DNA from: Escherichia coli
GTDB taxonomy: Bacteria > Pseudomonadota > Gammaproteobacteria > Enterobacterales > Enterobacteriaceae
Direction: 5' to 3' (one strand)
NCBI RefSeq assembly: GCF_003334405.1
Contig: NZ_QOWM01000001.1
Length of the DNA stretch: 64,000 nt
Part shown: one piece after another, positions 7,275 through 21,632 of the stretch
Position numbering within the stretch: the stretch's first letter is position 1
Layout of the letters: every line of letters begins with the position of its first letter
Notes under the pieces: generated by a model
What the model was told of the DNA's origin: nothing
Databases searched by the model: none
What the model saw: only the letters and a program-made list of their open reading frames with translations
Program-made: the position numbers and the translations under genes

Positions 7275-8051
7275 ATGTCCGAAACAAAAAACGAACTTGA
7301 AGACCTGCTGGAAAAAGCAGCAACTGAACCGGCGCACCGCCCGGCCTTTTTCCGTACTCTACTGGAATCCACCGTCTGGGTGCCTGGTACGGCGGCGCAG
7401 GGCGAGGCTGTGGTTGAAGATAGCGCGCTTGATTTACAGCACTGGGAAAAAGAAGACGGCACCAGCGTCATTCCTTTTTTCACCTCGTTAGAAGCACTTC
7501 AACAGGCGGTTGAAGACGAACAGGCATTTGTCGTAATGCCCGTTCGCACGCTGTTTGAGATGACACTTGGCGAAACGCTCTTCCTTAATGCCAAACTGCC
7601 AACCGGTAAAGAATTTATGCCGCGTGAAATCAGTTTGTTGATTGGTGAAGAGGGAAATCCGCTGAGCAGCCAGGAAATCCTGGAAGGCGGTGAATCGCTG
7701 ATATTATCGGAAGTCGCAGAGCCGCCAGCACAAATGATTGATTCACTCACCACCTTATTTAAAACCATTAAGCCGGTGAAGCGTGCTTTTATTTGTTCAA
7801 TTAAAGAGAACGAAGAGGCACAGCCTAATTTACTTATTGGCATTGAAGCCGATGGTGATATCGAAGAAATTATTCAGGCGACGGGAAGTGTAGCGACCGA
7901 TACATTACCTGGCGATGAACCAATCGATATTTGTCAGGTGAAAAAAGGGGAAAAAGGAATTAGCCACTTTATTACCGAACATATTGCGCCATTCTATGAA
8001 CGTCGCTGGGGTGGTTTTTTGCGTGACTTTAAACAGAATCGGATAATCTAA
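7275..8051 (+). CDS. sseB: SseB (enhanced serine sensitivity protein)
   Basis: ORF 7266-8051 trimmed to ATG 7275 (258 aa, MSETKNELEDLLEK). Confidence 0.93.
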   Translation: MSETKNELEDLLEKAATEPAHRPAFFRTLLESTVWVPGTAAQGEAVVEDSALDLQHWEKEDGTSVIPFFTSLEALQQAVEDEQAFVVMPVRTLFEMTLGETLFLNAKLPTGKEFMPREISLLIGEEGNPLSSQEILEGGESLILSEVAEPPAQMIDSLTTLFKTIKPVKRAFICSIKENEEAQPNLLIGIEADGDIEEIIQATGSVATDTLPGDEPIDICQVKKGEKGISHFITEHIAPFYERRWGGFLRDFKQNRII

Positions 8052-8054
8052 AAT

Positions 8055-8080
8055 ATGCCGCCCAAAGGGCGGCATTCGGG
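8055..8080. terminator. bidirectional intrinsic terminator (sseB 3' end / small-ORF transcript 3' end)
   Basis: Hairpin atgccgccc-aaa-gggcggcat with U-rich flanks on both strands. Confidence 0.6.
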
Positions 8081-8081
8081 C

Positions 8082-8219
8082 TTACTTGCTGCTCTGAAGG
8101 TTGTTAACCACCAGTAAATTGTCGCCGGAGAGACTCCGGTTATTATTTACCTCGGTTAACAGCGCACCAGAAACAATAAGTACGATACAAAAGCACCGTA
8201 TCTTCATTGTGCGGTCCAT
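8082..8219 (-). CDS. small hydrophobic protein, candidate type I toxin-like (41 aa from ATG 8207, or 45 aa from ATG 8219); ryfA/timP-like
   Basis: Hand-translated minus-strand ORF (M)DRTMKIRCFCIVLIVSGALLTEVNNNRSLSGDNLLVVNNLQSSK*; hydrophobic N-terminal segment; absent from the >=60-aa ORF track; weak SD; location matches the ryfA locus between sseB and sseA as I recall it. Confidence 0.5.
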   Translation of the reverse strand: MDRTMKIRCFCIVLIVSGALLTEVNNNRSLSGDNLLVVNNLQSSK

Positions 8220-8335
8220 GCGAAGACCGCATCACGACAGCACCACTGGCGATATTGCCGCGATAGCAAGCGCTGTGAAACACCTGCATTTACGGCCACG
8301 GAACATCCTTTCCTAAAGCCAGCGCCCGTTTGCGA

Positions 8336-8532
8336 GACGGCGGAAAGGGCCGCAGTGGATAATACACTAACAGAACAATAATAACTCTCTTTTGCTTGAC
8401 AAAAAGAGAGTTACTGGCGAGTATTGTCTCCGCTGAGACGCGCTTGCATTACTACGGTAATACAACCTGCTGGAAAGGCCGCGAACCGGACCAGCAACAA
8501 AAAACCGCCTGATTTTGGCGGTTTTTTGTTTT
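8336..8532 (+). repeat. tandem duplicated sRNA-like module, copy 1
   Basis: About 195-bp unit beginning acggcggaaagggcc..., sharing ctctcttttgcttgacaaaaagagagttactgg and cctgctggaaaggccgcgaacc blocks with copy 2. Confidence 0.75.
8433..8532 (+). ncRNA. candidate small RNA (copy 1; diverged sibling), approx. bounds
   Basis: TTGACA at 8396-8401 with weak -10 about 17 bp downstream; strong intrinsic terminator aaaaaaccgcc-tgatttt-ggcgg + ttttttgtttttt (8498-8534); ryfB/ryfC-type by location. Confidence 0.4.
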
Positions 8533-8752
8533 TTAAAGGAAAGTGAATTTACATGTTTAAGTAATATCTTTTACCGGTTAGAATTTTTAATTTTGAGCAG
8601 GATTTGTTTATATTTGTCTGAATTCGGACTAATAAGCCAGGTTATTTTATTACCGAACACGGCGGAAAGGGCCGGTGTCGATAATACGCTAAATAAACAA
8701 TAATTACTCTCTTTTGCTTGACAAAAAGAGAGTTACTGGTGAGTATTGTTTT

Positions 8753-8868: not shown

Positions 8869-9714
8869 TTATTTCACTGGCTCAACCGGTAAATCTGCCC
8901 GCGCGCCCCATTCACTCCATGCGCCGTCGTACAGTTTCACGTTTGGCACATCCAGCGTCGCGAGTGCTAACAAAACCACGGCTGCCGTTACACCAGAGCC
9001 GCAGCTGACGATAATTGGTTTGTCGTAGCTGACGCCGCGACCAAAAAATATCGCATCCAGTTCATCGGTCGTTTTTAGTTCGCCTTCGCGCACCAGTTCC
9101 GTCCACGGAACATTCAGTGCTCCGGGAATATGTCCGCGACGTAAACCTGGGCGAGGTTCATCAACTTCTGCGTTAAAACGTGCAGCCGGGCGGGCATCAA
9201 TAATTTGCGCCGTATTTTCATGGCTTGCCAATAATACATCGGTTACTTTCACCACGGCTTCAGGATTAAACGCGGCGTTAAACTCTCCTTCCGGCAGCTC
9301 TACTGCACCTTCTTCTAACAGCAGATCATCGCGCTGCCAGCCTGCAAGTCCACCCCCCAGAATCGACACTTTCTCTACACCAAAGGTGCGCAGCATCCAC
9401 CATGCTCGTGGGGCTGAGAAAAGATTACCTTCGTCATAGACAATCAGGTGCTTATCCTGGTTAACGCCTAATTCACGCATCGCCACGGCGAACGTTTCCG
9501 GGCGCGGCAGCATGTGCGGAAGCGGGGAAGTGTGATCAGAAAGCGCTTCGATATCAAAAAACACTGCGCCGGGAATATGTCCATTCAGATACTCCTGAGC
9601 AACGTTACGATCCTCCTGTCCAGGCGACGCCATGCGGGCATCGATAATCTGAATTTCCGGGTCATCAATATGTTCGGCGAGCCAGTCGGCTCCTACAAAC
9701 CATGTCGTGGACAT
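8869..9714 (-). CDS. sseA: 3-mercaptopyruvate sulfurtransferase SseA (rhodanese family)
   Basis: ORF 8869-9873 trimmed to ATG 9714 (281 aa, MSTTWFVGADWLAEHIDDPE); active-site CGSGVTA. Confidence 0.94.
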   Translation of the reverse strand: MSTTWFVGADWLAEHIDDPEIQIIDARMASPGQEDRNVAQEYLNGHIPGAVFFDIEALSDHTSPLPHMLPRPETFAVAMRELGVNQDKHLIVYDEGNLFSAPRAWWMLRTFGVEKVSILGGGLAGWQRDDLLLEEGAVELPEGEFNAAFNPEAVVKVTDVLLASHENTAQIIDARPAARFNAEVDEPRPGLRRGHIPGALNVPWTELVREGELKTTDELDAIFFGRGVSYDKPIIVSCGSGVTAAVVLLALATLDVPNVKLYDGAWSEWGARADLPVEPVK

Positions 9715-9920
9715 AGGCATCTCCATTTTTGCCGGGGTTAGGCTAAATTGTCGGATGTTTAGTGAAAAGCGACAAGCAAAAGAGGCTGATTTGGCTGTCT
9801 GAGCCACAATTCTCACTAAAATTCGGATTGTATGGGCGTGATACTGAATTACATAACGTAAATTCTCACGCATAATAATTATTCGACGTTGCTAACGGGC
9901 CATTGTGGCAGGGATGAAAA

Positions 9921-12900
9921 ATGAAAAAGTTACGCGTAGCCGCCTGCATGCTAATGCTGGCGCTGGCAGGGTGCGACAACAACGATAACGCGCCAACAGC
10001 GGTGAAAAAAGATGCGCCTTCTGAAGTTACTAAAGCGGCCTCTTCAGAAAACGCGAGTTCAGCAAAACTCTCCGTGCCGGAGAGACAAAAACTGGCCCAA
10101 CAGAGTGCCGGTAAGGTGCTGACATTGCTGGATCTCTCTGAAGTCCAACTTGATGGTGCAGCCACGCTGGTGCTGACGTTCTCCATCCCTCTCGACCCGG
10201 ATCAGGATTTCTCACGCGTTATTCATGTCGTCGATAAAAAAAGCGGCAAAGTGGATGGTGCCTGGGAGCTGTCAGATAATCTTAAAGAGTTACGTTTACG
10301 CCACCTCGAACCGAAACGTGATTTGATCGTTACTATTGGCAAGGAGGTCAAAGCACTCAACAACGCAACCTTCAGTAAAGATTACGAAAAAACTATAACT
10401 ACCCGCGACATCCAACCCAGCGTCGGTTTTGCCAGCCGTGGTTCGCTGCTGCCTGGCAAAGTCGTTGAAGGGCTGCCGGTAATGGCGCTCAACGTTAATA
10501 ATGTCGATGTTAACTTCTTCCGCGTTAAGCCAGAATCTCTGCCAGCATTCATTAGCCAATGGGAATACCGCAATTCGCTGGCGAACTGGCAGTCAGACAA
10601 ACTGCTGCAGATGGCGGATCTGGTCTACACCGGACGGTTTGATCTCAATCCTGCGCGTAACACCCGTGAAAAATTATTGCTGCCGCTGGGCGATATCAAA
10701 CCGCTTCAGCAGGCGGGCGTGTATCTGGCTGTGATGAATCAGGCTGGACGTTACGATTACAGTAATCCCGCGACGCTGTTTACGTTAAGTGATATCGGCG
10801 TTTCAGCTCACCGTTATCACAATCGTCTGGATATCTTTACCCAAAGTCTGGAAAACGGCGCGGCCCAGCAAGGAATTGAAGTCTCTTTATTAAATGAGAA
10901 AGGGCAGACTCTGACTCAGGCAACCAGTGACGCTCAGGGGCATGTGCAGCTGGAAAATGATAAAAACGCGGCATTACTGTTGGCGCGTAAAGACGGTCAG
11001 ACAACGCTACTCGATTTAAAACTTCCGGCGCTGGACTTAGCAGAATTTAACATTGCTGGCGCGCCAGGCTATAGCAAACAGTTTTTCATGTTTGGCCCAC
11101 GCGATCTTTATCGCCCAGGTGAAACGGTAATCCTCAATGGTTTGCTGCGTGATGCAGACGGTAAAGCGTTGCCCAATCAACCCATCAAGTTAGACGTGAT
11201 TAAACCCGATGGGCAGGTACTCAGGAGCGTCGTTAGTCAGCCGGAGAATGGCCTCTACCACTTTACCTGGCCACTCGATAGCAATGCGGCAACCGGTATG
11301 TGGCATATTCGCGCTAACACGGGCGATAATCAGTATCGGATGTGGGATTTCCACGTCGAAGATTTTATGCCAGAGCGCATGGCGCTGAATCTGACCGGTG
11401 AGAAAACCCCGCTAACGCCGAAAGATGAAGTGAAATTCTCCGTGGTGGGGTACTACCTGTATGGTGCACCTGCTAATGGTAATACTTTGCAAGGGCAACT
11501 TTTCCTGCGCCCACTGCGTGAAGCTGTGTCAGCCTTACCTGGTTTTGAATTCGGCGATATAGCTGCCGAAAATCTTTCCCGCACGCTGGATGAAGTTCAG
11601 TTGACGCTGGATGATAAAGGGCGCGGCGAAGTTTCTACAGAAAGCCAGTGGAAGGAAACGCATTCCCCATTACAGGTTATTTTCCAGGGTAGTTTGCTGG
11701 AATCGGGCGGTCGCCCGGTGACGCGCCGCGCTGAGCAGGCTATCTGGCCTGCCGATGCATTGCCGGGGATCCGTCCGCAGTTCGCCTCGAAATCGGTTTA
11801 CGATTATCGTACTGACAGCACGGTGAAACAGCCCATTGTTGATGAAGGCAGTAACGCCGCTTTTGACATCGTTTATAGCGATGCGCAAGGCGTGAAAAAA
11901 GCCGTGTCGGGCTTGCAGGTGCGCCTGATTCGCGAACGCCGCGATTACTACTGGAACTGGTCAGAAGATGAAGGCTGGCAGTCACAGTTTGATCAAAAAG
12001 ATCTGATCGAAAATGAACAAACTCTGGATCTGAAAGCGGACGAAACCGGCAAGGTCAGTTTTCCGGTAGAGTGGGGCGCTTATCGTCTGGAAGTCAAAGC
12101 GCCGAATGAAGCGGTCAGTAGTGTTCGTTTCTGGGCTGGCTATAGCTGGCAGGACAACAGCGACGGTAGCGGCGCAGTGCGACCCGACCGTGTCACGCTG
12201 AAACTGGATAAAGCCAGTTATCGCCCTGGCGACACCATTAAGTTGCATATCGCCGCGCCAACGGCGGGTAAAGGTTATGCGATGGTCGAGTCCAGTGAAG
12301 GGCCGCTGTGGTGGCAAGAGATTGATGTTCGGGCTCAAGGGCTGGATCTGACGATTCCGGTCGATAAAACCTGGAATCGTCATGATCTGTATTTAAGTAC
12401 GCTGGTGGTACGTCCTGGCGATAAATCTCGCTCCGCGACGCCAAAACGCGCGGTTGGTGTGTTGCATCTGCCGCTTGGCGATGAAAACCGTCGCCTCGAT
12501 CTGGCGCTGGAAACACCAGCAAAAATGCGTCCCAATCAACCATTAACCGTGAAAATTAAAGCCAGCACTAAAAATGGCGAGAAGCCTAAACAGGTGAATG
12601 TGCTGGTGTCTGCCGTTGATAGTGGTGTGCTGAATATTACTGACTACGTCACGCCAGATCCGTGGCAGGCGTTCTTTGGTCAGAAACGCTATGGCGCAGA
12701 CATTTACGATATTTACGGTCAGGTTATTGAAGGTCAGGGGCGTCTGGCAGCTCTGCGTTTCGGTGGCGATGGTGATGAGCTGAAACGTGGTGGTAAACCG
12801 CCGGTCAATCACGTCAATATTGTCGTGCAGCAGGCGCTGCCGGTAACGCTCAACGAACAGGGCGAAGGCTCGGTTACACTGCCGATTGGCGATTTTAACG

Positions 12901-14882
12901 GTGAATTGCGCGTCATGGCGCAAGCCTGGACGGCAGATGACTTCGGTAGCAACGAAAGTAAAGTGATAGTTGCCGCACCGGTGATTGCTGAACTGAACAT
13001 GCCGCGCTTTATGGCGAGTGGCGATACCTCGCGTCTGACGCTGGATATCACTAATCTTACCGATAAACCGCAAAAACTGAACGTTGCCCTGACCGCCAGT
13101 GGTTTGCTTGAACTGGTCAGCGATTCACCCGCAGCCGTTGAATTAGCGCCAGGTGTGCGTACTACGCTGTTTATCCCGGTGCGAGCATTGCCGGGTTATG
13201 GCGATGGAGAAATTCAGGCCACCATTAGCGGGTTAGCGTTACCGGGTGAAACCGTTGCCGATCAGCATAAGCAGTGGAAAATCGGCGTCCGTCCGGCGTT
13301 CCCGGCACAAACGGTTAATTACGGTACGGCGTTACAGCCTGGTGAGACATGGGCGATTCCGGCGGATGGATTGCAAAACTTCTCGCCTGTTACGCTGGAA
13401 GGGCAATTGTTGTTGAGCGGCAAACCACCGCTGAACATCGCACGTTATATCAAAGAGTTAAAAGCGTATCCGTACGGCTGTCTTGAGCAAACCGCCAGCG
13501 GCCTGTTTCCGTCACTTTATACCAACGCAGCCCAACTGCAGGCGTTGGGCATCAAAGGCGACAGTGATGAGAAACGCCGTGCATCGGTCGATATCGGCAT
13601 TTCCCGTTTGCTGCAAATGCAACGTGATAACGGCGGCTTTGCGCTGTGGGATAAAAACGGTGACGAAGAGTACTGGCTGACGGCTTACGTGATGGATTTC
13701 CTGGTCCGCGCAGGCGAACAGGGTTACAGCGTGCCGACAGACGCCATTAACCGGGGTAATGAGCGTCTGCTGCGCTATTTACAAGATCCGGGCATGATGT
13801 CGATCCCGTACGCGGATAATCTCAAAGCCAGTAAATTCGCCGTACAGTCTTACGCTGCGCTGGTGTTGGCCCGTCAGCAAAAGGCTCCGCTGGGTGCGCT
13901 GCGTGAAATCTGGGAGCATCGTGCAGATGCCGCTTCTGGTTTACCGCTGCTGCAACTTGGCGTTGCGCTGAAAACCATGGGTGATGCGACGCGTGGTGAA
14001 GAAGCGATTGCGCTGGCGCTGAAAACGCCGCGTAATAGTGATGAGCGGATATGGCTGGGTGATTACGGTAGTTCACTGCGCGACAACGCGTTAATGCTCT
14101 CCTTGCTGGAAGAAAATAAACTGCTACCCGATGAGCAGTACACTTTGCTGAACACACTTTCGCAGCAGGCGTTTGGTGAACGCTGGCTATCGACGCAGGA
14201 AAGTAACGCGTTGTTCCTGGCTGCCCGTACGATTCAGGATTTACCCGGTAAATGGCAGGCGCAAACCTCTTTCTCAGCTGAGCAGCTGACAGGCGAGAAA
14301 GCGCAAAACAGCAATCTGAATAGCGATCAACTTGTCACCTTGCAGGTGAGCAACAGTGGCGATCAGCCGTTATGGTTGCGTATGGATGCCAGCGGTTATC
14401 CGCAATCCGCACCTTTACCGGCGAACAATGTGCTGCAAATCGAGCGTCATATTCTTGGTACTGATGGTAAGAGCAAATCGCTGGACTCGTTACGTAGCGG
14501 CGATCTGGTGCTGGTGTGGTTGCAGGTAAAAGCCAGTAACAGCGTGCCGGATGCGTTAGTCGTGGATCTGCTGCCTGCGGGTCTGGAACTGGAAAACCAG
14601 AATCTGGCGAACGGTAGCGCCAGCCTGGAGCAAAGTGGTGGCGAAGTGCAGAACTTACTGAACCAGATGCAGCAGGCGAGCATTAAGCACATTGAGTTCC
14701 GTGACGATCGCTTTGTGGCGGCGGTTGCCGTTGATGAATACCAACCGGTAACGCTGGTGTATCTGGCGCGGGCGGTGACGCCGGGAACGTATCAGGTACC
14801 GCAACCGATGGTGGAATCAATGTATGTTCCCCAATGGCGGGCGACCGGCGCGGCTGAAGATCTGCTGATTGTCAGACCGTAA
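9921..14882 (+). CDS. yfhM: alpha-2-macroglobulin family lipoprotein YfhM
   Basis: 1653-aa ORF; lipobox LALAGC at N-term; thioester motif CLEQ at 13479-13490 (YPYGCLEQTASG). Confidence 0.96.
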   Translation: MKKLRVAACMLMLALAGCDNNDNAPTAVKKDAPSEVTKAASSENASSAKLSVPERQKLAQQSAGKVLTLLDLSEVQLDGAATLVLTFSIPLDPDQDFSRVIHVVDKKSGKVDGAWELSDNLKELRLRHLEPKRDLIVTIGKEVKALNNATFSKDYEKTITTRDIQPSVGFASRGSLLPGKVVEGLPVMALNVNNVDVNFFRVKPESLPAFISQWEYRNSLANWQSDKLLQMADLVYTGRFDLNPARNTREKLLLPLGDIKPLQQAGVYLAVMNQAGRYDYSNPATLFTLSDIGVSAHRYHNRLDIFTQSLENGAAQQGIEVSLLNEKGQTLTQATSDAQGHVQLENDKNAALLLARKDGQTTLLDLKLPALDLAEFNIAGAPGYSKQFFMFGPRDLYRPGETVILNGLLRDADGKALPNQPIKLDVIKPDGQVLRSVVSQPENGLYHFTWPLDSNAATGMWHIRANTGDNQYRMWDFHVEDFMPERMALNLTGEKTPLTPKDEVKFSVVGYYLYGAPANGNTLQGQLFLRPLREAVSALPGFEFGDIAAENLSRTLDEVQLTLDDKGRGEVSTESQWKETHSPLQVIFQGSLLESGGRPVTRRAEQAIWPADALPGIRPQFASKSVYDYRTDSTVKQPIVDEGSNAAFDIVYSDAQGVKKAVSGLQVRLIRERRDYYWNWSEDEGWQSQFDQKDLIENEQTLDLKADETGKVSFPVEWGAYRLEVKAPNEAVSSVRFWAGYSWQDNSDGSGAVRPDRVTLKLDKASYRPGDTIKLHIAAPTAGKGYAMVESSEGPLWWQEIDVRAQGLDLTIPVDKTWNRHDLYLSTLVVRPGDKSRSATPKRAVGVLHLPLGDENRRLDLALETPAKMRPNQPLTVKIKASTKNGEKPKQVNVLVSAVDSGVLNITDYVTPDPWQAFFGQKRYGADIYDIYGQVIEGQGRLAALRFGGDGDELKRGGKPPVNHVNIVVQQALPVTLNEQGEGSVTLPIGDFNGELRVMAQAWTADDFGSNESKVIVAAPVIAELNMPRFMASGDTSRLTLDITNLTDKPQKLNVALTASGLLELVSDSPAAVELAPGVRTTLFIPVRALPGYGDGEIQATISGLALPGETVADQHKQWKIGVRPAFPAQTVNYGTALQPGETWAIPADGLQNFSPVTLEGQLLLSGKPPLNIARYIKELKAYPYGCLEQTASGLFPSLYTNAAQLQALGIKGDSDEKRRASVDIGISRLLQMQRDNGGFALWDKNGDEEYWLTAYVMDFLVRAGEQGYSVPTDAINRGNERLLRYLQDPGMMSIPYADNLKASKFAVQSYAALVLARQQKAPLGALREIWEHRADAASGLPLLQLGVALKTMGDATRGEEAIALALKTPRNSDERIWLGDYGSSLRDNALMLSLLEENKLLPDEQYTLLNTLSQQAFGERWLSTQESNALFLAARTIQDLPGKWQAQTSFSAEQLTGEKAQNSNLNSDQLVTLQVSNSGDQPLWLRMDASGYPQSAPLPANNVLQIERHILGTDGKSKSLDSLRSGDLVLVWLQVKASNSVPDALVVDLLPAGLELENQNLANGSASLEQSGGEVQNLLNQMQQASIKHIEFRDDRFVAAVAVDEYQPVTLVYLARAVTPGTYQVPQPMVESMYVPQWRATGAAEDLLIVRP

Positions 14883-17195
14883 ATGCCTCGCTTGTTAACC
14901 AAACGCGGCTGCTGGATAACGTTGGCAGCCGCGCCCTTTCTCCTTTTTCTTGCAGCGTGGGGAGCAGATAAACTCTGGCCTCTACCGCTGCATGAAGTCA
15001 ATCCCGCACGAGTGGTCGTGGCGCAGGATGGTACGCCGCTCTGGCGCTTCGCCGATGCTGACGGCATCTGGCGTTATCCGGTAACAATCGAAGATGTTTC
15101 TCCACGTTACCTTGAAGCGCTGATCAATTATGAAGATCGCTGGTTCTGGAAGCATCCGGGGGTGAATCCATTCTCGGTGGCGCGCGCAGCATGGCAAGAT
15201 CTCACTTCGGGACGGGTTATTTCCGGTGGCAGCACGCTCACTATGCAGGTTGCTCGTCTGCTTGATCCTCACCCCAAAACATTTGGCGGCAAAATTCGCC
15301 AGCTCTGGCGCGCGTTGCAACTGGAATGGCATCTGTCTAAGCGTGAAATTCTGACCTTGTATCTTAACCGCGCTCCGTTTGGCGGTACGTTGCAGGGGAT
15401 CGGTGCGGCAAGTTGGGCTTATCTCGGAAAATCGCCTGCGAATTTAAGCTATTCCGAGGCGGCAATGCTGGCGGTTTTGCCGCAAGCGCCCAGCCGTCTT
15501 CGCCCGGATCGTTGGCCGGAGCGTGCCGAAGCCGCGCGTAATAAAGTGCTCGAACGGATGGCCGTGCAAGGTGTGTGGTCCCGTGAGCAGGTAAAAGAGT
15601 CAAGGGAAGAACCCATCTGGCTGGCCCCCCGACAAATGCCGCAACTGGCACCGCTGTTTTCGCGCATGATGCTCGGTAAAAGCAAAAGCGACAAAATCAC
15701 TACTACGTTGGATGCCGGTCTTCAACGACGTCTGGAAGAACTGGCGCAAAACTGGAAAGGGCGGTTGCCACCGCGCAGCTCACTGGCGATGATCGTGGTT
15801 GATCATACCGATATGCGTGTTCGCGGCTGGGTGGGATCGGTTGATCTCAACGATGATTCACGCTTTGGTCATGTTGATATGGTCAATTCGATCCGATCGC
15901 CAGGATCAGTGCTCAAACCGTTTGTTTATGGTCTGGCGCTGGATGAAGGCTTGATCCACCCGGCATCACTGCTGCAAGACGTCCCCCGGCGCACCGGTGA
16001 TTATCGACCAGGTAACTTTGATAGCGGTTTTCATGGCCCGATCAGCATGAGCGAGGCGCTGGTGCGCTCGCTGAACTTACCTGCTGTGCAGGTGCTGGAA
16101 GCCTATGGACCGAAACGGTTTGCGGCAAAGTTACGCAATGTTGGATTGCCGTTATATTTGCCCAACGGTGCTGCGCCGAATCTTTCACTCATTCTCGGCG
16201 GCGCTGGTGCAAAACTGGAAGATATGGCGGCAGCGTATACCGCGTTTGCTCGCCACGGCAAGGCAGGCAAATTGCGCTTACAGCCTGACGATCCGCTGCT
16301 TGAACGGCCTTTAATGTCGTCGGGGGCGGCGTGGATCATTCGCCGGATTATGGCTGATGAAGCGCAACCCTTGCCGGATAGTGCCTTGCCGCGCGTCGCC
16401 CCACTGGCATGGAAAACGGGCACCAGCTATGGCTATCGTGACGCCTGGGCGATTGGGGTTAACGCTCGCTATGTCATTGGGATCTGGACTGGCAGACCGG
16501 ACGGCACGCCCGTTGTTGGTCAGTTTGGCTTTGCCAGTGCCGTACCATTGTTGAATCAGGTCAATAATATCTTACTGTCGCGCAGTGCGAATCTGCCGGA
16601 AGACCCGCGCCCGAACTCAGTCACTCGTGGCGTTATCTGCTGGCCGGGCGGACAGTCTTTGCCGGAAGGTGACGGTAACTGTCGCCGCCGCCTGGCAACC
16701 TGGCTGCTGGACGGGAGTCAGCCGCCAACTCTATTACTGCCGGAGCAGGAAGGCATTAATGGCATTCGTTTCCCCATCTGGCTGGATGAAAATGGCAAAC
16801 GTGTTGCCGCTGATTGCCCGCAAGCGCGACAAGAAATGATAAATGTCTGGCCGCTACCGCTGGAACCCTGGCTGCCCGCATCAGAACGTCGCGCTGTGCG
16901 CTTACCACCGGCCTCGACAAGTTGCCCGCCATACGGTCACGATGCCCAGCTCCCGCTGCAGCTGACAGGCGTTCGCGATGGCGCGATTATTAAACGTTTA
17001 CCGGGCGCAGCGGAAGCGACTTTGCCGTTGCAATCAAGTGGAGGGGCAGGTGAACGCTGGTGGTTTCTGAATGGCGAACCGTTAACTGAACGCGGGCGCA
17101 ACGTGACCCTGCATTTGACGGATAAAGGTGATTATCAATTGCTGGTGATGGATGACGTGGGGCAAATCGCGACAGTGAAATTTGTCATGCAATAG
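14883..17195 (+). CDS. pbpC: penicillin-binding protein 1C (bifunctional glycosyltransferase/transpeptidase)
   Basis: 770-aa ORF MPRLLTKRGCWITLAAAPF starting immediately after yfhM stop; glycosyltransferase motif EDRWFWKH; SxxK transpeptidase motif. Confidence 0.96.
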   Translation: MPRLLTKRGCWITLAAAPFLLFLAAWGADKLWPLPLHEVNPARVVVAQDGTPLWRFADADGIWRYPVTIEDVSPRYLEALINYEDRWFWKHPGVNPFSVARAAWQDLTSGRVISGGSTLTMQVARLLDPHPKTFGGKIRQLWRALQLEWHLSKREILTLYLNRAPFGGTLQGIGAASWAYLGKSPANLSYSEAAMLAVLPQAPSRLRPDRWPERAEAARNKVLERMAVQGVWSREQVKESREEPIWLAPRQMPQLAPLFSRMMLGKSKSDKITTTLDAGLQRRLEELAQNWKGRLPPRSSLAMIVVDHTDMRVRGWVGSVDLNDDSRFGHVDMVNSIRSPGSVLKPFVYGLALDEGLIHPASLLQDVPRRTGDYRPGNFDSGFHGPISMSEALVRSLNLPAVQVLEAYGPKRFAAKLRNVGLPLYLPNGAAPNLSLILGGAGAKLEDMAAAYTAFARHGKAGKLRLQPDDPLLERPLMSSGAAWIIRRIMADEAQPLPDSALPRVAPLAWKTGTSYGYRDAWAIGVNARYVIGIWTGRPDGTPVVGQFGFASAVPLLNQVNNILLSRSANLPEDPRPNSVTRGVICWPGGQSLPEGDGNCRRRLATWLLDGSQPPTLLLPEQEGINGIRFPIWLDENGKRVAADCPQARQEMINVWPLPLEPWLPASERRAVRLPPASTSCPPYGHDAQLPLQLTGVRDGAIIKRLPGAAEATLPLQSSGGAGERWWFLNGEPLTERGRNVTLHLTDKGDYQLLVMDDVGQIATVKFVMQ

Positions 17196-17281
17196 TCTGT
17201 TTTGTCCCTGATTGTTGCTAAAACTCATTTTATTTTAAAAAAATGTTACCTTCATCAATAGTCAACGGCCCTGTTGCTCAT

Positions 17282-17287
17282 TATAAT
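17282..17287 (+). promoter_or_regulatory. candidate -10 hexamer (TATAAT) for ndk
   Basis: TATAAT 57 bp upstream of ndk ATG; -35 not convincing. Confidence 0.3.
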
Positions 17288-17343
17288 CCGCGCCATCTCG
17301 TACGCTGGTACAGACAACAACAGAACAATTTACAGAGGTAAAA

Positions 17344-17775
17344 ATGGCTATTGAACGTACTTTTTCCATCATCAAACCGAACGCGGTAGCAAAAAACGTC
17401 ATTGGTAATATCTTTGCGCGCTTTGAAGCTGCAGGGTTCAAAATTGTTGGCACCAAAATGCTGCACCTGACCGTTGAACAGGCACGTGGCTTTTATGCTG
17501 AACACGATGGAAAACCGTTCTTTGATGGTCTGGTTGAATTCATGACCTCTGGCCCGATCGTGGTTTCCGTGCTGGAAGGTGAAAACGCCGTTCAGCGTCA
17601 CCGCGATCTGCTGGGCGCGACCAATCCGGCAAACGCACTGGCTGGTACTCTGCGCGCTGATTACGCTGACAGCCTGACCGAAAACGGTACCCACGGTTCT
17701 GATTCCGTCGAATCTGCCGCTCGCGAAATCGCTTATTTCTTTGGCGAAGGCGAAGTGTGCCCGCGCACCCGTTAA
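17344..17775 (+). CDS. ndk: nucleoside diphosphate kinase
   Basis: 143-aa [24 protein letters not shown]; active-site NGTHGSD. Confidence 0.97.
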
Positions 17776-17835
17776 TAATTTCGTAAATGCCGCGTGCAAA
17801 CGTGGCATCCGTGCGCCAGAATTTGTACAATGCAG

Positions 17836-17880
17836 CGCCCCCGGACGAGCAGCCGCTCACCGGGGCGTTTCTTTTTTCAA
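17836..17880 (+). terminator. candidate intrinsic terminator after ndk
   Basis: GC-rich hairpin cgcccccgg...ccggggcg followed by gtttcttttttc. Confidence 0.5.
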
Positions 17881-17924
17881 CCCTCCAGGGGCCATAACGT
17901 GTAATAACGAGGCCGGAATAGCAT

Positions 17925-19079
17925 ATGTCTGAACAATTAGTCACACCTGAAAACGTCACCACGAAAGATGGAAAAATCAACCTGCTGGATCTCAACCGTC
18001 AGCAGATGCGGGAGTTTTTTAAAGATTTAGGTGAAAAACCCTTCCGCGCCGATCAGGTGATGAAGTGGATGTATCACTATTGCTGCGACAACTTTGATGA
18101 GATGACCGACATCAACAAAGTGTTGCGCGGCAAACTGAAAGAGGTGGCGGAAATCCGCGCACCGGAAGTGGTTGAAGAACAGCGTTCATCTGACGGCACC
18201 ATTAAATGGGCGATCGCCGTTGGCGATCAGCGCGTCGAAACGGTGTATATCCCGGAAGACGACCGTGCCACGCTCTGCGTCTCTTCGCAGGTGGGGTGTG
18301 CGCTAGAGTGTAAATTCTGTTCCACCGCCCAGCAGGGCTTTAACCGCAACCTGCGGGTGTCGGAAATTATCGGCCAGGTGTGGCGTGCGGCGAAAATCGT
18401 CGGCGCAGCAAAAGTCACCGGTCAGCGTCCGATCACTAACGTAGTGATGATGGGCATGGGCGAGCCGCTGCTCAACCTGAACAACGTCGTTCCGGCGATG
18501 GAAATCATGCTTGATGATTTCGGTTTTGGCCTGTCTAAACGTCGCGTCACGCTTTCCACTTCCGGTGTAGTTCCGGCGCTGGATAAACTGGGCGATATGA
18601 TCGACGTTGCACTGGCAATTTCCCTGCACGCGCCGAACGACGAAATTCGTGACGAAATTGTGCCGATCAACAAAAAGTACAATATCGAAACGTTCCTTGC
18701 TGCGGTGCGCCGTTATCTGGAGAAATCCAACGCCAATCAGGGCCGAGTCACTATTGAATACGTGATGCTTGACCACGTTAACGACGGCACTGAACACGCG
18801 CACCAACTGGCGGAACTGCTGAAAGATACGCCGTGTAAGATCAACCTGATCCCGTGGAACCCGTTCCCGGGTGCGCCGTATGGACGCAGCTCGAACAGCC
18901 GTATCGACCGTTTCTCAAAAGTGCTGATGAGCTACGGTTTCACCACTATTGTGCGTAAAACTCGTGGTGATGATATCGATGCTGCCTGTGGTCAGTTGGC
19001 GGGCGATGTTATCGACCGTACGAAACGTACCCTGCGTAAACGGATGCAGGGTGAAGCCATCGACATTAAAGCGGTCTGA
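17925..19079 (+). CDS. rlmN: 23S rRNA/tRNA adenine C2 methyltransferase RlmN (radical SAM)
   Basis: 384-aa [23 protein letters not shown]; radical-SAM Cys motif CALECKFC. Confidence 0.96.
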
Positions 19080-20403: not shown

Positions 20404-21522
20404 ATGCATAACCAGGCTCCAATTCAACGTAGAAAATCAACACGTATTTACGTTGGGAATGTGCCGATTGGCGATGGTGCTCCCATCGCCGTACAGTCCA
20501 TGACCAATACGCGTACGACAGACGTCGAAGCAACGGTCAATCAAATCAAGGCGCTGGAACGCGTTGGCGCTGATATCGTCCGTGTATCCGTACCGACGAT
20601 GGACGCGGCAGAAGCGTTCAAACTCATCAAACAGCAGGTTAACGTGCCGCTGGTGGCTGACATCCACTTCGACTATCGCATTGCGCTGAAAGTAGCGGAA
20701 TACGGCGTCGATTGTCTGCGTATTAACCCTGGCAATATCGGTAATGAAGAGCGTATTCGCATGGTGGTTGACTGTGCGCGCGATAAAAACATTCCGATCC
20801 GTATTGGCGTTAACGCCGGATCGCTGGAAAAAGATCTGCAAGAAAAGTATGGCGAACCGACGCCGCAGGCGTTGCTGGAATCTGCCATGCGTCATGTTGA
20901 TCATCTCGATCGCCTGAACTTCGATCAGTTCAAAGTCAGCGTGAAAGCGTCTGACGTCTTCCTCGCTGTTGAGTCTTATCGTTTGCTGGCAAAACAGATC
21001 GATCAGCCGTTGCATCTGGGGATCACCGAAGCCGGTGGTGCGCGCAGCGGGGCAGTAAAATCCGCCATTGGTTTAGGTCTGCTGCTGTCTGAAGGCATCG
21101 GCGACACGCTGCGCGTATCGCTGGCGGCCGATCCGGTCGAAGAGATCAAAGTCGGTTTCGATATTTTGAAATCGCTGCGTATCCGTTCGCGAGGGATCAA
21201 CTTCATCGCCTGCCCGACCTGTTCGCGTCAGGAATTTGATGTTATCGGTACGGTTAACGCGCTGGAGCAACGCCTGGAAGATATCATCACTCCGATGGAC
21301 GTTTCGATTATCGGCTGCGTGGTGAATGGCCCAGGTGAGGCGCTGGTTTCTACACTCGGCGTCACCGGCGGCAACAAGAAAAGCGGCCTCTATGAAGATG
21401 GCGTGCGCAAAGACCGTCTGGACAACAACGATATGATCGACCAGCTGGAAGCACGCATTCGTGCGAAAGCCAGTCAGCTGGACGAAGCGCGTCGAATTGA
21501 CGTTCAGCAGGTTGAAAAATAA
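20404..21522 (+). CDS. ispG: 4-hydroxy-3-methylbut-2-enyl diphosphate synthase IspG
   Basis: 372-aa [26 protein letters not shown]; Cys motif ACPTCSR. Confidence 0.96.
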
Positions 21523-21632
21523 TAACGTGATGGGAAGCGCCTCGCTTCCCGTGTATGATTGAACCCGCATGGCTCCCGAAACATTGAGGGAAGCGTTGAG
21601 GGTTCATTTTTATATTCAGAAAGAGAATAAAC

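Follow-up and report, generated by a model that had tools for sequence, protein, structure and literature searches.

The locus raises two questions: whether the CLEQ tetrapeptide encoded in yfhM marks a genuine thioester site of a bacterial alpha-2-macroglobulin (A2M), and what is to be made of the direct contact between this gene and pbpC. Based on the collective evidence from the window (the whole 64-kb stretch of Escherichia coli DNA analysed), the feature is understood, with high confidence, as the thioester site of YfhM, the type I A2M of E. coli K-12 referred to as ECAM, the gene of which directly adjoins pbpC; a protease-trapping mechanism and likely co-transcription of the two genes are included in this reading. 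The yfhM coding sequence (9921 to 14882, on the plus strand like all features located below) is one uninterrupted frame of 1653 codons plus stop, with neither frameshifts nor internal stops. The pbpC coding sequence (14883 to 17195; 770 amino acids plus stop) is likewise free of both, and with the CxEQ motif kept, the locus is complete, as the initial annotation had held.

The gene names proposed there are borne out by DNA comparison, in which the 7.6-kb yfhM-pbpC region is 100% identical to yfhM/pbpC of E. coli K-12 MG1655, where the counterpart of yfhM is annotated as 'alpha2-macroglobulin' (WP_000736312.1). The region was found in every one of the 5426 complete E. coli genomes searched, at a coverage of at least 80% in 5424 of them. 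Since none of the NCBIfam models matches YfhM (0 families), its identification rests on Pfam, the PDB and genome annotation. Against the solved structures of ECAM (4rtd, 4ziq and 5a42), YfhM aligns with E=0, from residue 23 or 40 through to 1653; it is the product of the same gene, of the same length of 1653 residues, and the residue numbers of all published functional residues agree. In the numbering of PMC4498604, R923, L942, R956, G958, N963, Y1183, Y1185, C1187, Q1190 and M1634 are all recovered in the translation. The alignment, as far as printed, shows two residues at which the 4rtd construct and YfhM of the window differ (Ser219 versus Pro, Gln605 versus Arg); both lie outside the thioester domain, and there is no functional difference from ECAM. 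The K-12 protein has reportedly been the subject of work by Doan and Gettins in 2008 and, separately, by Garcia-Ferrer and by Fyfe in 2015.

The thioester motif CLEQ (13479 to 13490) reads TGTCTTGAGCAA and follows directly on Y1183-P-Y1185-G. It begins 3558 nt from the yfhM ATG at 9921, a distance divisible by three, which places it in frame as Cys1187 to Gln1190, and its local context AYPYGCLEQTASG is exactly that given when the motif was first called intact. CxEQ occurs once in YfhM, as CLEQ, and only four times in the six-frame translation of the entire window (about 128,000 codons), the longer form GCxEQ just once. A tetrapeptide of this kind might have arisen by chance, or might persist in a decayed pseudogene with no functional thioester to show for it. 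We consider this extremely improbable, for the 1653-codon frame is intact, the encoded protein is identical to one characterised by experiment, and the shielding residues and lock motifs around the site are in place. CLEQ is not a chance match because it falls on the published thioester residues of ECAM, Cys1187 and Gln1190 (PMC4498604), and CxEQ is kept in all 149 divergent homologues whose sequence spans the site (representatives at 32-53% identity). The chance or pseudogene reading is rejected on this retention together with the structure match, the K-12 identity and the intact frame.

The surroundings of the motif are those of a protected thioester. CLEQ is located inside the Pfam match to TED_complement (PF07678, E=2.5e-8; residues 1176-1283, at 13446 to 13769), a match that delimits the N-terminal part of the thioester domain (TED), the true domain reaching further toward the C-terminus. 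Tyr1183 and Tyr1185 are named in ECAM (PMC4498604) as tyrosines that shield the thioester. In the C-terminal MG domain, the RDDR motif (residues 1594-1597; 14700 to 14711) helps to hold the TED locked, and the ESMY motif (residues 1632-1635, including Met1634 and Tyr1635; 14814 to 14825) contributes the hydrophobic pocket over the thioester. RDDR and ExMY are conserved motifs described in PMC4498604, and all of these shielding and locking residues are present in YfhM of the window. The ECAM thioester is essential for covalent binding, it is modified by methylamine and by proteases, and a conformational change is described (PMC4498604; PMC3328433; PMC5764988; PMC9156758). Formation and reactivity of the bond, reported for the E. 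coli protein itself (PMC4498604; PMC3328433), may be expected here from the identity of the window sequence to K-12.

Pfam resolves the remainder of YfhM into bMG1, A2M_bMG2, bMG3, MG2, bMG5, bMG6, A2M_BRD, A2M, TED_complement, CUB_A2MG and bMG10, in which all matches other than those of the bait and thioester domains have E<=1e-7. The MG domains and the thioester domain anticipated by the initial annotation are thus accounted for; the receptor-binding domain listed with them is not, the C-terminal domain matching the bacterial bMG10/CTMG model instead of the eukaryotic receptor-binding-domain model. A2M_BRD (PF07703) covers residues 759-905 (E=4.5e-16), and the core of the bait region, Arg923-Leu942 (RYGADIYDIYGQVIEGQGRL; 12687 to 12746), comes just after it. 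A disordered stretch is reported for elastase-cleaved ECAM (PMC4498604), and its ends match residues 923 (R) and 942 (L). At the N-terminus, the lipoprotein signal peptide MKKLRVAACMLMLALAGC (9921 to 9974) was recognised from sequence and by regular expression; it ends in the lipobox L15-A-G-C18, with Asp19 at position +2. The lipobox Cys is conserved in ECAM (PMC3735191 Fig. 1). Lipidation of YfhM at Cys18 is predicted from the LAGC lipobox of residues 15-18. Asp at position +2 of a lipoprotein leads to retention at the inner membrane under the Lol-avoidance rule, by which YfhM is probably retained through Asp19 on the periplasmic face of that membrane. Overall, the sequence combines CxEQ in the TED, an MG array with CUB, a bait domain, a lipobox, the lock residues and adjacency to pbpC, which are the features of a type I bacterial A2M.

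Assembled into a mechanism, these elements would operate as follows. After export, YfhM would be lipidated at Cys18 and probably held by Asp19 at the inner membrane, facing the periplasm. Once YfhM has folded, its Cys1187 and Gln1190 would be joined in the internal thioester, which would lie buried beneath Tyr1183 and Tyr1185 and the C-terminal MG domain with its RDDR and ESMY motifs. On entering the periplasm, a protease would cleave the exposed bait region at around Arg923-Leu942, and the freed bait strand would push the TED off its lock, with rearrangement of YfhM as the result. The thioester thus exposed could then react with a nucleophile on the protease, leaving the latter covalently tethered and sterically hindered from cutting large substrates. 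The downstream gene would supply a membrane-anchored class A penicillin-binding protein (PBP) with an intact glycosyltransferase domain together with a transpeptidase domain. For ECAM, published experiments demonstrate the thioester, its reactivity with methylamine and protease, the conformational change and the structures. ECAM is an 'inhibitor' only in a limited sense because the proteases it traps are shielded solely from very large substrates, of 160 kDa or more (PMC9156758).

Turning to the contact with pbpC, the junction TAAATG (14880 to 14885) reads ...AGACCG TAA ATG CCT..., with the yfhM stop at 14880-14882 and the pbpC ATG at 14883-14885. The two genes therefore abut with a 0-nt spacer and without overlap, just as had been noted, and on the same strand, with zero intergenic DNA to hold a promoter or terminator between the coding sequences. 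The calculated Shine-Dalgarno duplex energy is +0.4 kcal/mol at the pbpC ATG (no pairing), compared to -6.0 at that of yfhM. The scan for promoters and terminators (9500-18000) returned nearby matches only inside coding sequences and site counts at the level of shuffled sequence, and the consensus scan gave no terminator-like site on the plus strand between the pbpC stop and ndk. A sigma-70-like match, ATTACA-17-CATAAT (9848 to 9876), lies in the intergenic region between sseA and yfhM, 45 nt ahead of the yfhM ATG, and agrees with the consensus at 9 of 12 positions. The region has 7 such sites, no excess over the 5.9 +/- 2.3 in shuffles, and the match may be viewed as a weak candidate for the yfhM promoter. 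An in vitro SELEX peak of the RpoE holoenzyme is listed inside yfhM (PMC5493296). The sigma-E consensus GGAACTT-N15-17-TCAAA, at up to 2 mismatches, is absent from both strands of 9501-15200, and hence no internal promoter in yfhM is claimed.

Three features, namely the abutting of the genes (0 nt), the absence of a Shine-Dalgarno sequence before pbpC and conserved synteny, suggest that yfhM and pbpC are most likely co-transcribed; from the first two of these, pbpC is most likely translated by coupling to termination on yfhM. The literature searched for co-transcription of the pair yields statements on gene order and no transcript evidence, and the term 'operon', as applied there to A2M-pbpC, is based on gene order (PMC4498604; PMC5764988).

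The product of pbpC is identified as the class A PBP1c, its DNA being 100% identical to MG1655 pbpC. It scores 1568.6 bits against the NCBIfam equivalog NF008414 'peptidoglycan glycosyltransferase PbpC' (cut-off 1121) and 919.9 bits against TIGR02073 PBP_1c (cut-off 494.2). Identical DNA and a score above the equivalog cut-off make this the same gene as that of the E. coli PBP1c of Schiffer & Holtje 1999. Pfam places Transgly at residues 61-226 (E=4.9e-52), Transpeptidase at 306-519 and BiPBP_C (PF06832) at 687-767 (E=4.8e-17), and an N-terminal hydrophobic segment is present. By motif search, the glycosyltransferase domain contains GT51 motif 1, EDRWFWKHPG with Glu84 (15132 to 15161), as well as GGSTLTMQ (GxSTxTxQ, residue 115) and KREILTLYLN (KxxILxxYxN, residue 153); the transpeptidase domain contains the active-site SxxK as S342-V-L-K345 (15906 to 15917), SxN as S396-L-N398 (16068 to 16076) and KTG as K511-T-G513 (16413 to 16421). 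All glycosyltransferase and transpeptidase motifs are thus kept, and PbpC is predicted to be a transpeptidase. No role in peptidoglycan synthesis is known for PBP1c under standard laboratory conditions, it cannot replace PBP1a or PBP1b, and its sole reported phenotype requires overproduction. It differs from PBP1a and PBP1b in having the BiPBP_C C-terminal domain and in being without a known Lpo activator.

Adjacency of A2M and pbpC has been described before (PMC4498604; PMC5764988; PMC3328433; PMC3735191), so that the module is, as the initial annotation had said, not novel, and the distant homologues looked up here agree. In five of six A2M homologues at 34-47% identity, the next gene downstream, on the same strand, is of the pbpC type, in one of these five with a TAATG overlap, and the flanking genes around the distant pairs are completely different. 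The pairing is frequent and, because the sixth homologue (L006) is without a downstream pbpC, not obligatory. The idea of a direct interaction between ECAM and PBP1c was already raised in PMC3328433.

A partnership of trap and synthase was put forward as a hypothesis by Budd 2004, as PMC4498604, PMC5764988 and PMC3328433 relate. Along the same lines, we hypothesize that YfhM and PBP1c cooperate, the one neutralising proteases and the other repairing peptidoglycan after a breach of the envelope. The two genes may instead be neighbours, perhaps co-transcribed, whose products are functionally independent, with YfhM trapping proteases, PBP1c carrying out wall synthesis that is unrelated or redundant, and shared history or co-transfer accounting for the adjacency. 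Such independence would accord with PBP1c lacking a known synthetic role in the laboratory, with the one homologue devoid of a pbpC neighbour, and with a literature in which the link between the two functions is only suggested and no experiment joins them. It is nevertheless considered unlikely, given that direct same-strand adjacency is retained in five of six homologues at 34-47% identity within completely different flanks, and that gene order is seldom kept over such distance without selection.

A closer association is also conceivable, in which YfhM is a lipoprotein dedicated to PBP1c as its partner or regulator, by analogy with LpoA and LpoB for PBP1a and PBP1b, and protease-activated ECAM binds PBP1c via its C-terminal domain and turns on local glycan synthesis. 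PMC3328433 proposes a possible direct interaction of PBP1c with the flexible C-terminal region of ECAM. Both proteins are predicted to be anchored in the inner membrane (YfhM by its lipobox, PbpC by its N-terminal hydrophobic segment), the abutting genes and the lack of a Shine-Dalgarno sequence before pbpC point to coupled translation, favouring linked production, and apparent inactivity of PBP1c in vivo unless overproduced would fit an absent activating signal. Interaction data are absent from the literature consulted on YfhM and PBP1c, and we regard this arrangement as doubtful. In its most specific form, YfhM would be the damage-sensing counterpart of LpoA/LpoB: an invading protease, by cutting the bait, would cause ECAM to bind and activate PBP1c, with repair directed to the site of the breach. 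This form is conceived from the conserved synteny, the apparent translational coupling, the inner-membrane anchoring of both proteins and a PBP1c that is silent unless overproduced, and we hold it to be rather improbable.

The reading preferred here, that of a thioester-dependent protease trap encoded directly beside pbpC, describes an intact and ordinary K-12 locus. Published accounts exist of the gene pair, its thioester residues, the structures and the adjacency of A2M and pbpC, the DNA of the window is that of the reference laboratory strain, and confirming the locus as intact and rightly identified therefore carries little weight as a discovery. It touches on the long-standing question of the role of PBP1c and of its cooperation with the macroglobulin, which is not made more testable by this sequence.

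Lastly, YfhM can be placed among the known A2M systems. Among them is SaA2M of Salmonella enterica (4u48/4u4j; Wong & Dessen 2014), also of type I, with a 13-domain architecture, CxEQ and the C-terminal MG lock; its structure 4u48 matches YfhM with E=0 over residues 18-1653, and 82% identity is reported (PMC4498604). SaA2M is the orthologue in another genus; it has provided the native locked conformation, and ECAM the protease-cleaved form. The type II A2M MagD of P. aeruginosa has the MG-domain architecture, the bait region and the periplasmic location in common with YfhM but is devoid of CxEQ and of the lipobox Cys, traps proteases non-covalently and is encoded in the six-gene magABCDEF operon rather than beside pbpC (PMC5764988; PMC3735191). 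CLEQ, the lipobox and the pbpC neighbour are the reasons for assigning YfhM to type I and for rejecting a MagD-like type II membership. With eukaryotic alpha-2-macroglobulin, complement C3 and CD109, YfhM shares the MG fold, the bait principle and the CxEQ thioester domain, and its sequence matches to human A2M (7voo, 6tav), C3 and CD109 are weak but significant; an identity of about 12% is reported between ECAM and human A2M (PMC4498604). Compared to the eukaryotic A2M, ECAM is a monomeric lipoprotein that carries two extra N-terminal MG domains (bMG1, bMG2), keeps off only very large substrates (PMC9156758) and has bMG10 as its C-terminal domain.

The locus examined is the ECAM/PBP1c locus itself, from the reference strain, beyond mere likeness to it. 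The region 9700-17300 is 100% identical to Escherichia coli K-12 MG1655 and several other strains; it was matched in 5426/5426 complete E. coli genomes searched, with coverage of at least 80% in 5424. The MG1655 record labels yfhM as alpha2-macroglobulin (A2M; WP_000736312.1) and pbpC as peptidoglycan glycosyltransferase PbpC, alias penicillin-binding protein 1C, and places the pair between sseA (divergent) and ndk. The earlier verdict of "not novel" is thus endorsed: the locus is already known, and nothing is new in the gene pair. Across 25.6 kb (700-26300), the window departs from the MG1655 record NZ_CP032667.1 at five single bases (8606, 18305, 19770, 22550 and 24156), all outside yfhM-pbpC; it is therefore K-12-like, not identical to that assembly. 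The remainder is ordinary K-12 chromosome, iscS to bamC. It includes the known K-12 features iscRS stability element (566-675, +; Rfam 138.1 bits), at the isc operon start, and sroE sRNA (21522-21613, +; 116.6 bits), between ispG and hisS. The sseB-sseA gap is a known small-toxin/sRNA locus, with Rfam matches to ryfA RNA (8050-8353, -; 314.9 bits) and IS128 RNA (8485-8693, -; 262.1 bits); TimP, a small toxic inner-membrane protein, is annotated in the K-12 record at 8082-8207 (-), within the ryfA match.

At the thioester site, TGTCTTGAGCAA (13479-13490) begins 3558 nt from the yfhM ATG at 9921, a multiple of 3, and therefore codes for Cys-Leu-Glu-Gln, residues 1187-1190 of YfhM. CxEQ occurs once in this protein; translated in all six frames (~128,000 codons), the whole window contains CxEQ four times and GCxEQ once. 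The initial annotation had described the motif as intact and in frame, which is correct to the base, down to the peptide context AYPYGCLEQTASG; when the window sequence was checked for a frameshift or loss of CxEQ, the 1653-aa yfhM ORF (9921-14882, +) proved uninterrupted and CLEQ present. Equally exact was its placement of the gene junction, in which the pbpC ATG (14883-14885) comes straight after the yfhM stop TAA (14880-14882), with a spacer of 0 nt and the 770-aa pbpC ORF ending at 17195.

The arrangement of the pair argues for a single transcription unit with coupled translation, favoured because of the 0-nt spacer, the lack of a Shine-Dalgarno (SD) sequence at pbpC, the lack of intergenic DNA able to house a promoter or terminator, and the gene order and strand conserved among distant loci. 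No SD pairing was found before pbpC (14861-14885), where the anti-SD duplex energy is +0.4 kcal/mol; yfhM gives -6.0 kcal/mol, and most neighbouring genes fall between -5 and -9 kcal/mol. Together with the abutting yfhM stop, the missing pairing suggests that pbpC is translated by termination-reinitiation coupling. The rodZ gene (start 19364) is likewise without SD pairing (+0.6 by the same measure). The promoter/terminator consensus scan stood at shuffle level. An intragenic (type D) peak from in vitro RpoE-holoenzyme SELEX is listed in yfhM (map position 2649866 in the paper's coordinates; PMC5493296); a search of both strands of 9501-15200, allowing up to 2 mismatches, gave no sigma-E consensus. 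Transcription may read through from pbpC into ndk: on the + strand, the stretch from the pbpC stop to ndk (17196-17343) yielded no terminator-like hairpin in the scan, the first one after pbpC lying behind ndk at 17854-17867, and a good sigma-70-like site (TAGTCA-17-TATAAT, 10/12) is located upstream of ndk at 17259-17287. The initial interpretation is supported overall, with "operon" and "module" as its inferred terms. In two duck isolates from Sichuan, E. coli HL15 (NZ_CP079770.1; 162-1130 of the extracted locus) and SF10 (NZ_CP079767.1), an IS5-family transposase has inserted between sseA and yfhM, where the promoter is presumed to lie, ~157 nt ahead of the yfhM ATG (window equivalent ~9715-9920). 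Both isolates retain unchanged yfhM and pbpC coding sequences; expression of the two genes could be altered by the insertion.

A search with the C-terminal 653 residues of YfhM against 1.84 billion cluster representatives gave 9897 matches at E<=0.001 (1207 at E<=1e-30). Among the best 150 of the 9897 (identity 32-53%, one short fragment 81%), CxEQ is kept in 149/149 that span the site and CLEQ in 118/149; the exception is a fragment beginning after the thioester. Six full-length representatives (32-47% identity) were viewed in their own contigs. Three (L002, L003 and L004), with wholly different flanking genes, have a Transgly + Transpeptidase + BiPBP_C gene directly downstream of A2M on the same strand; in L005 a 765-aa downstream gene, 44% identical to PbpC, overlaps the A2M stop (ATAATG), and in L007 the gene downstream is truncated and aligns with PbpC residues 28-73. 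In the sixth (L006 353-5785; GCA_052043475.1, JBQGBW010000136.1), an acetyltransferase gene, not pbpC, follows the A2M gene, whose product P0139 is a full-length thioester-containing A2M-type homologue (32% identity); this contig shows only 352 nt upstream, so a pbpC could still lie on that side. With 5/6 loci paired, the A2M-pbpC association is therefore frequent, not obligatory. Nor is the spacer always 0, amounting to ~150-170 nt in L003 and L004. In L002 the gene calls place a 135-aa ORF without Pfam match (8950-9357) between the two genes, where it runs into the predicted pbpC start; either miscalling or the insertion of a small gene may account for it.

PbpC scores 1568.6 bits, above the cut-off of 1121, with the NCBIfam PbpC equivalog and 919.9 bits, above 494, with TIGR02073 PBP_1c; its Pfam domains are Transgly (residues 61-226), Transpeptidase (306-519) and BiPBP_C (687-767). 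GT51 motifs (EDRWFWKHPG, GGSTLTMQ, KREILTLYLN) and transpeptidase motifs (SVLK at 342, SLN at 396, KTG at 511) are present, and the hydrophobic N-terminal segment WITLAAAPFLLFLAAW is compatible with membrane anchoring; as far as sequence can tell, PbpC has every defining feature of PBP1c. Under standard conditions, PBP1c is not known to contribute to peptidoglycan synthesis; it cannot replace PBP1a/PBP1b, and the first phenotype ascribed to it needed overproduction. Cooperation with A2M was hypothesized by Budd et al. 2004, as relayed by citing papers, all of which treat it as a hypothesis: A2M neutralises proteases and PBP1c repairs peptidoglycan once the envelope is breached (PMC4498604; PMC5764988; PMC3328433). 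Direct interaction with PBP1c via the ECAM C-terminal domain has been suggested (PMC3328433). The one reading that would offer some novelty, in which damage activates ECAM to regulate PBP1c, we consider improbable; it is partly anticipated in print, and the window sequence makes it no more testable.

YfhM itself matches structures of "uncharacterized lipoprotein YfhM" (4rtd, 4ziq, 5a42; E=0, residues 23/40-1653) and of Salmonella alpha-2-macroglobulin (4u48, 4u4j; E=0). Its Pfam domains are bMG1 (residues 59-163), A2M_bMG2 (169-287), bMG3 (289-381), MG2 (388-479), bMG5 (485-610), bMG6 (638-741), A2M_BRD (759-905), A2M (976-1057), TED_complement (1176-1283), CUB_A2MG (1443-1504) and bMG10 (1505-1638). 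The macroglobulin and thioester domains anticipated by the initial annotation are thus present; the eukaryotic receptor-binding-domain model has no Pfam match in YfhM, whose C-terminal domain is the bacterial MG10/CTMG instead. In the N-terminus MKKLRVAACMLMLALAGC-D there is a lipobox, with Asp19 after Cys18; by the established lipoprotein sorting rule, Asp at +2 leads to inner-membrane retention, which would apply to YfhM. Published ECAM residue numbers all agree with the translation (Arg923, Leu942 in the bait, Arg956, Gly958, Asn963), and Tyr1183, Tyr1185, Cys1187, Gln1190, Met1634 and the RDDR and ExMY motifs are likewise at their published positions (PMC4498604). ECAM is modified by methylamine and proteases and changes conformation upon activation (PMC4498604; PMC3328433): once its disordered bait region is cut, the freed strand and the thioester domain compete for the C-terminal macroglobulin domain, which exposes the thioester (PMC4498604). 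The protein is monomeric, and trapped proteases are kept only from very large substrates (PMC9156758). Since the window encodes the same protein, we adopt this mechanism, whereby YfhM would proceed from bait cleavage to thioester exposure. Human A2M, complement C3 and CD109 also match YfhM in sequence, weakly but significantly. Among bacterial A2Ms, YfhM has all defining features of type I that can be tested in sequence; those of type II (MagD) are absent.
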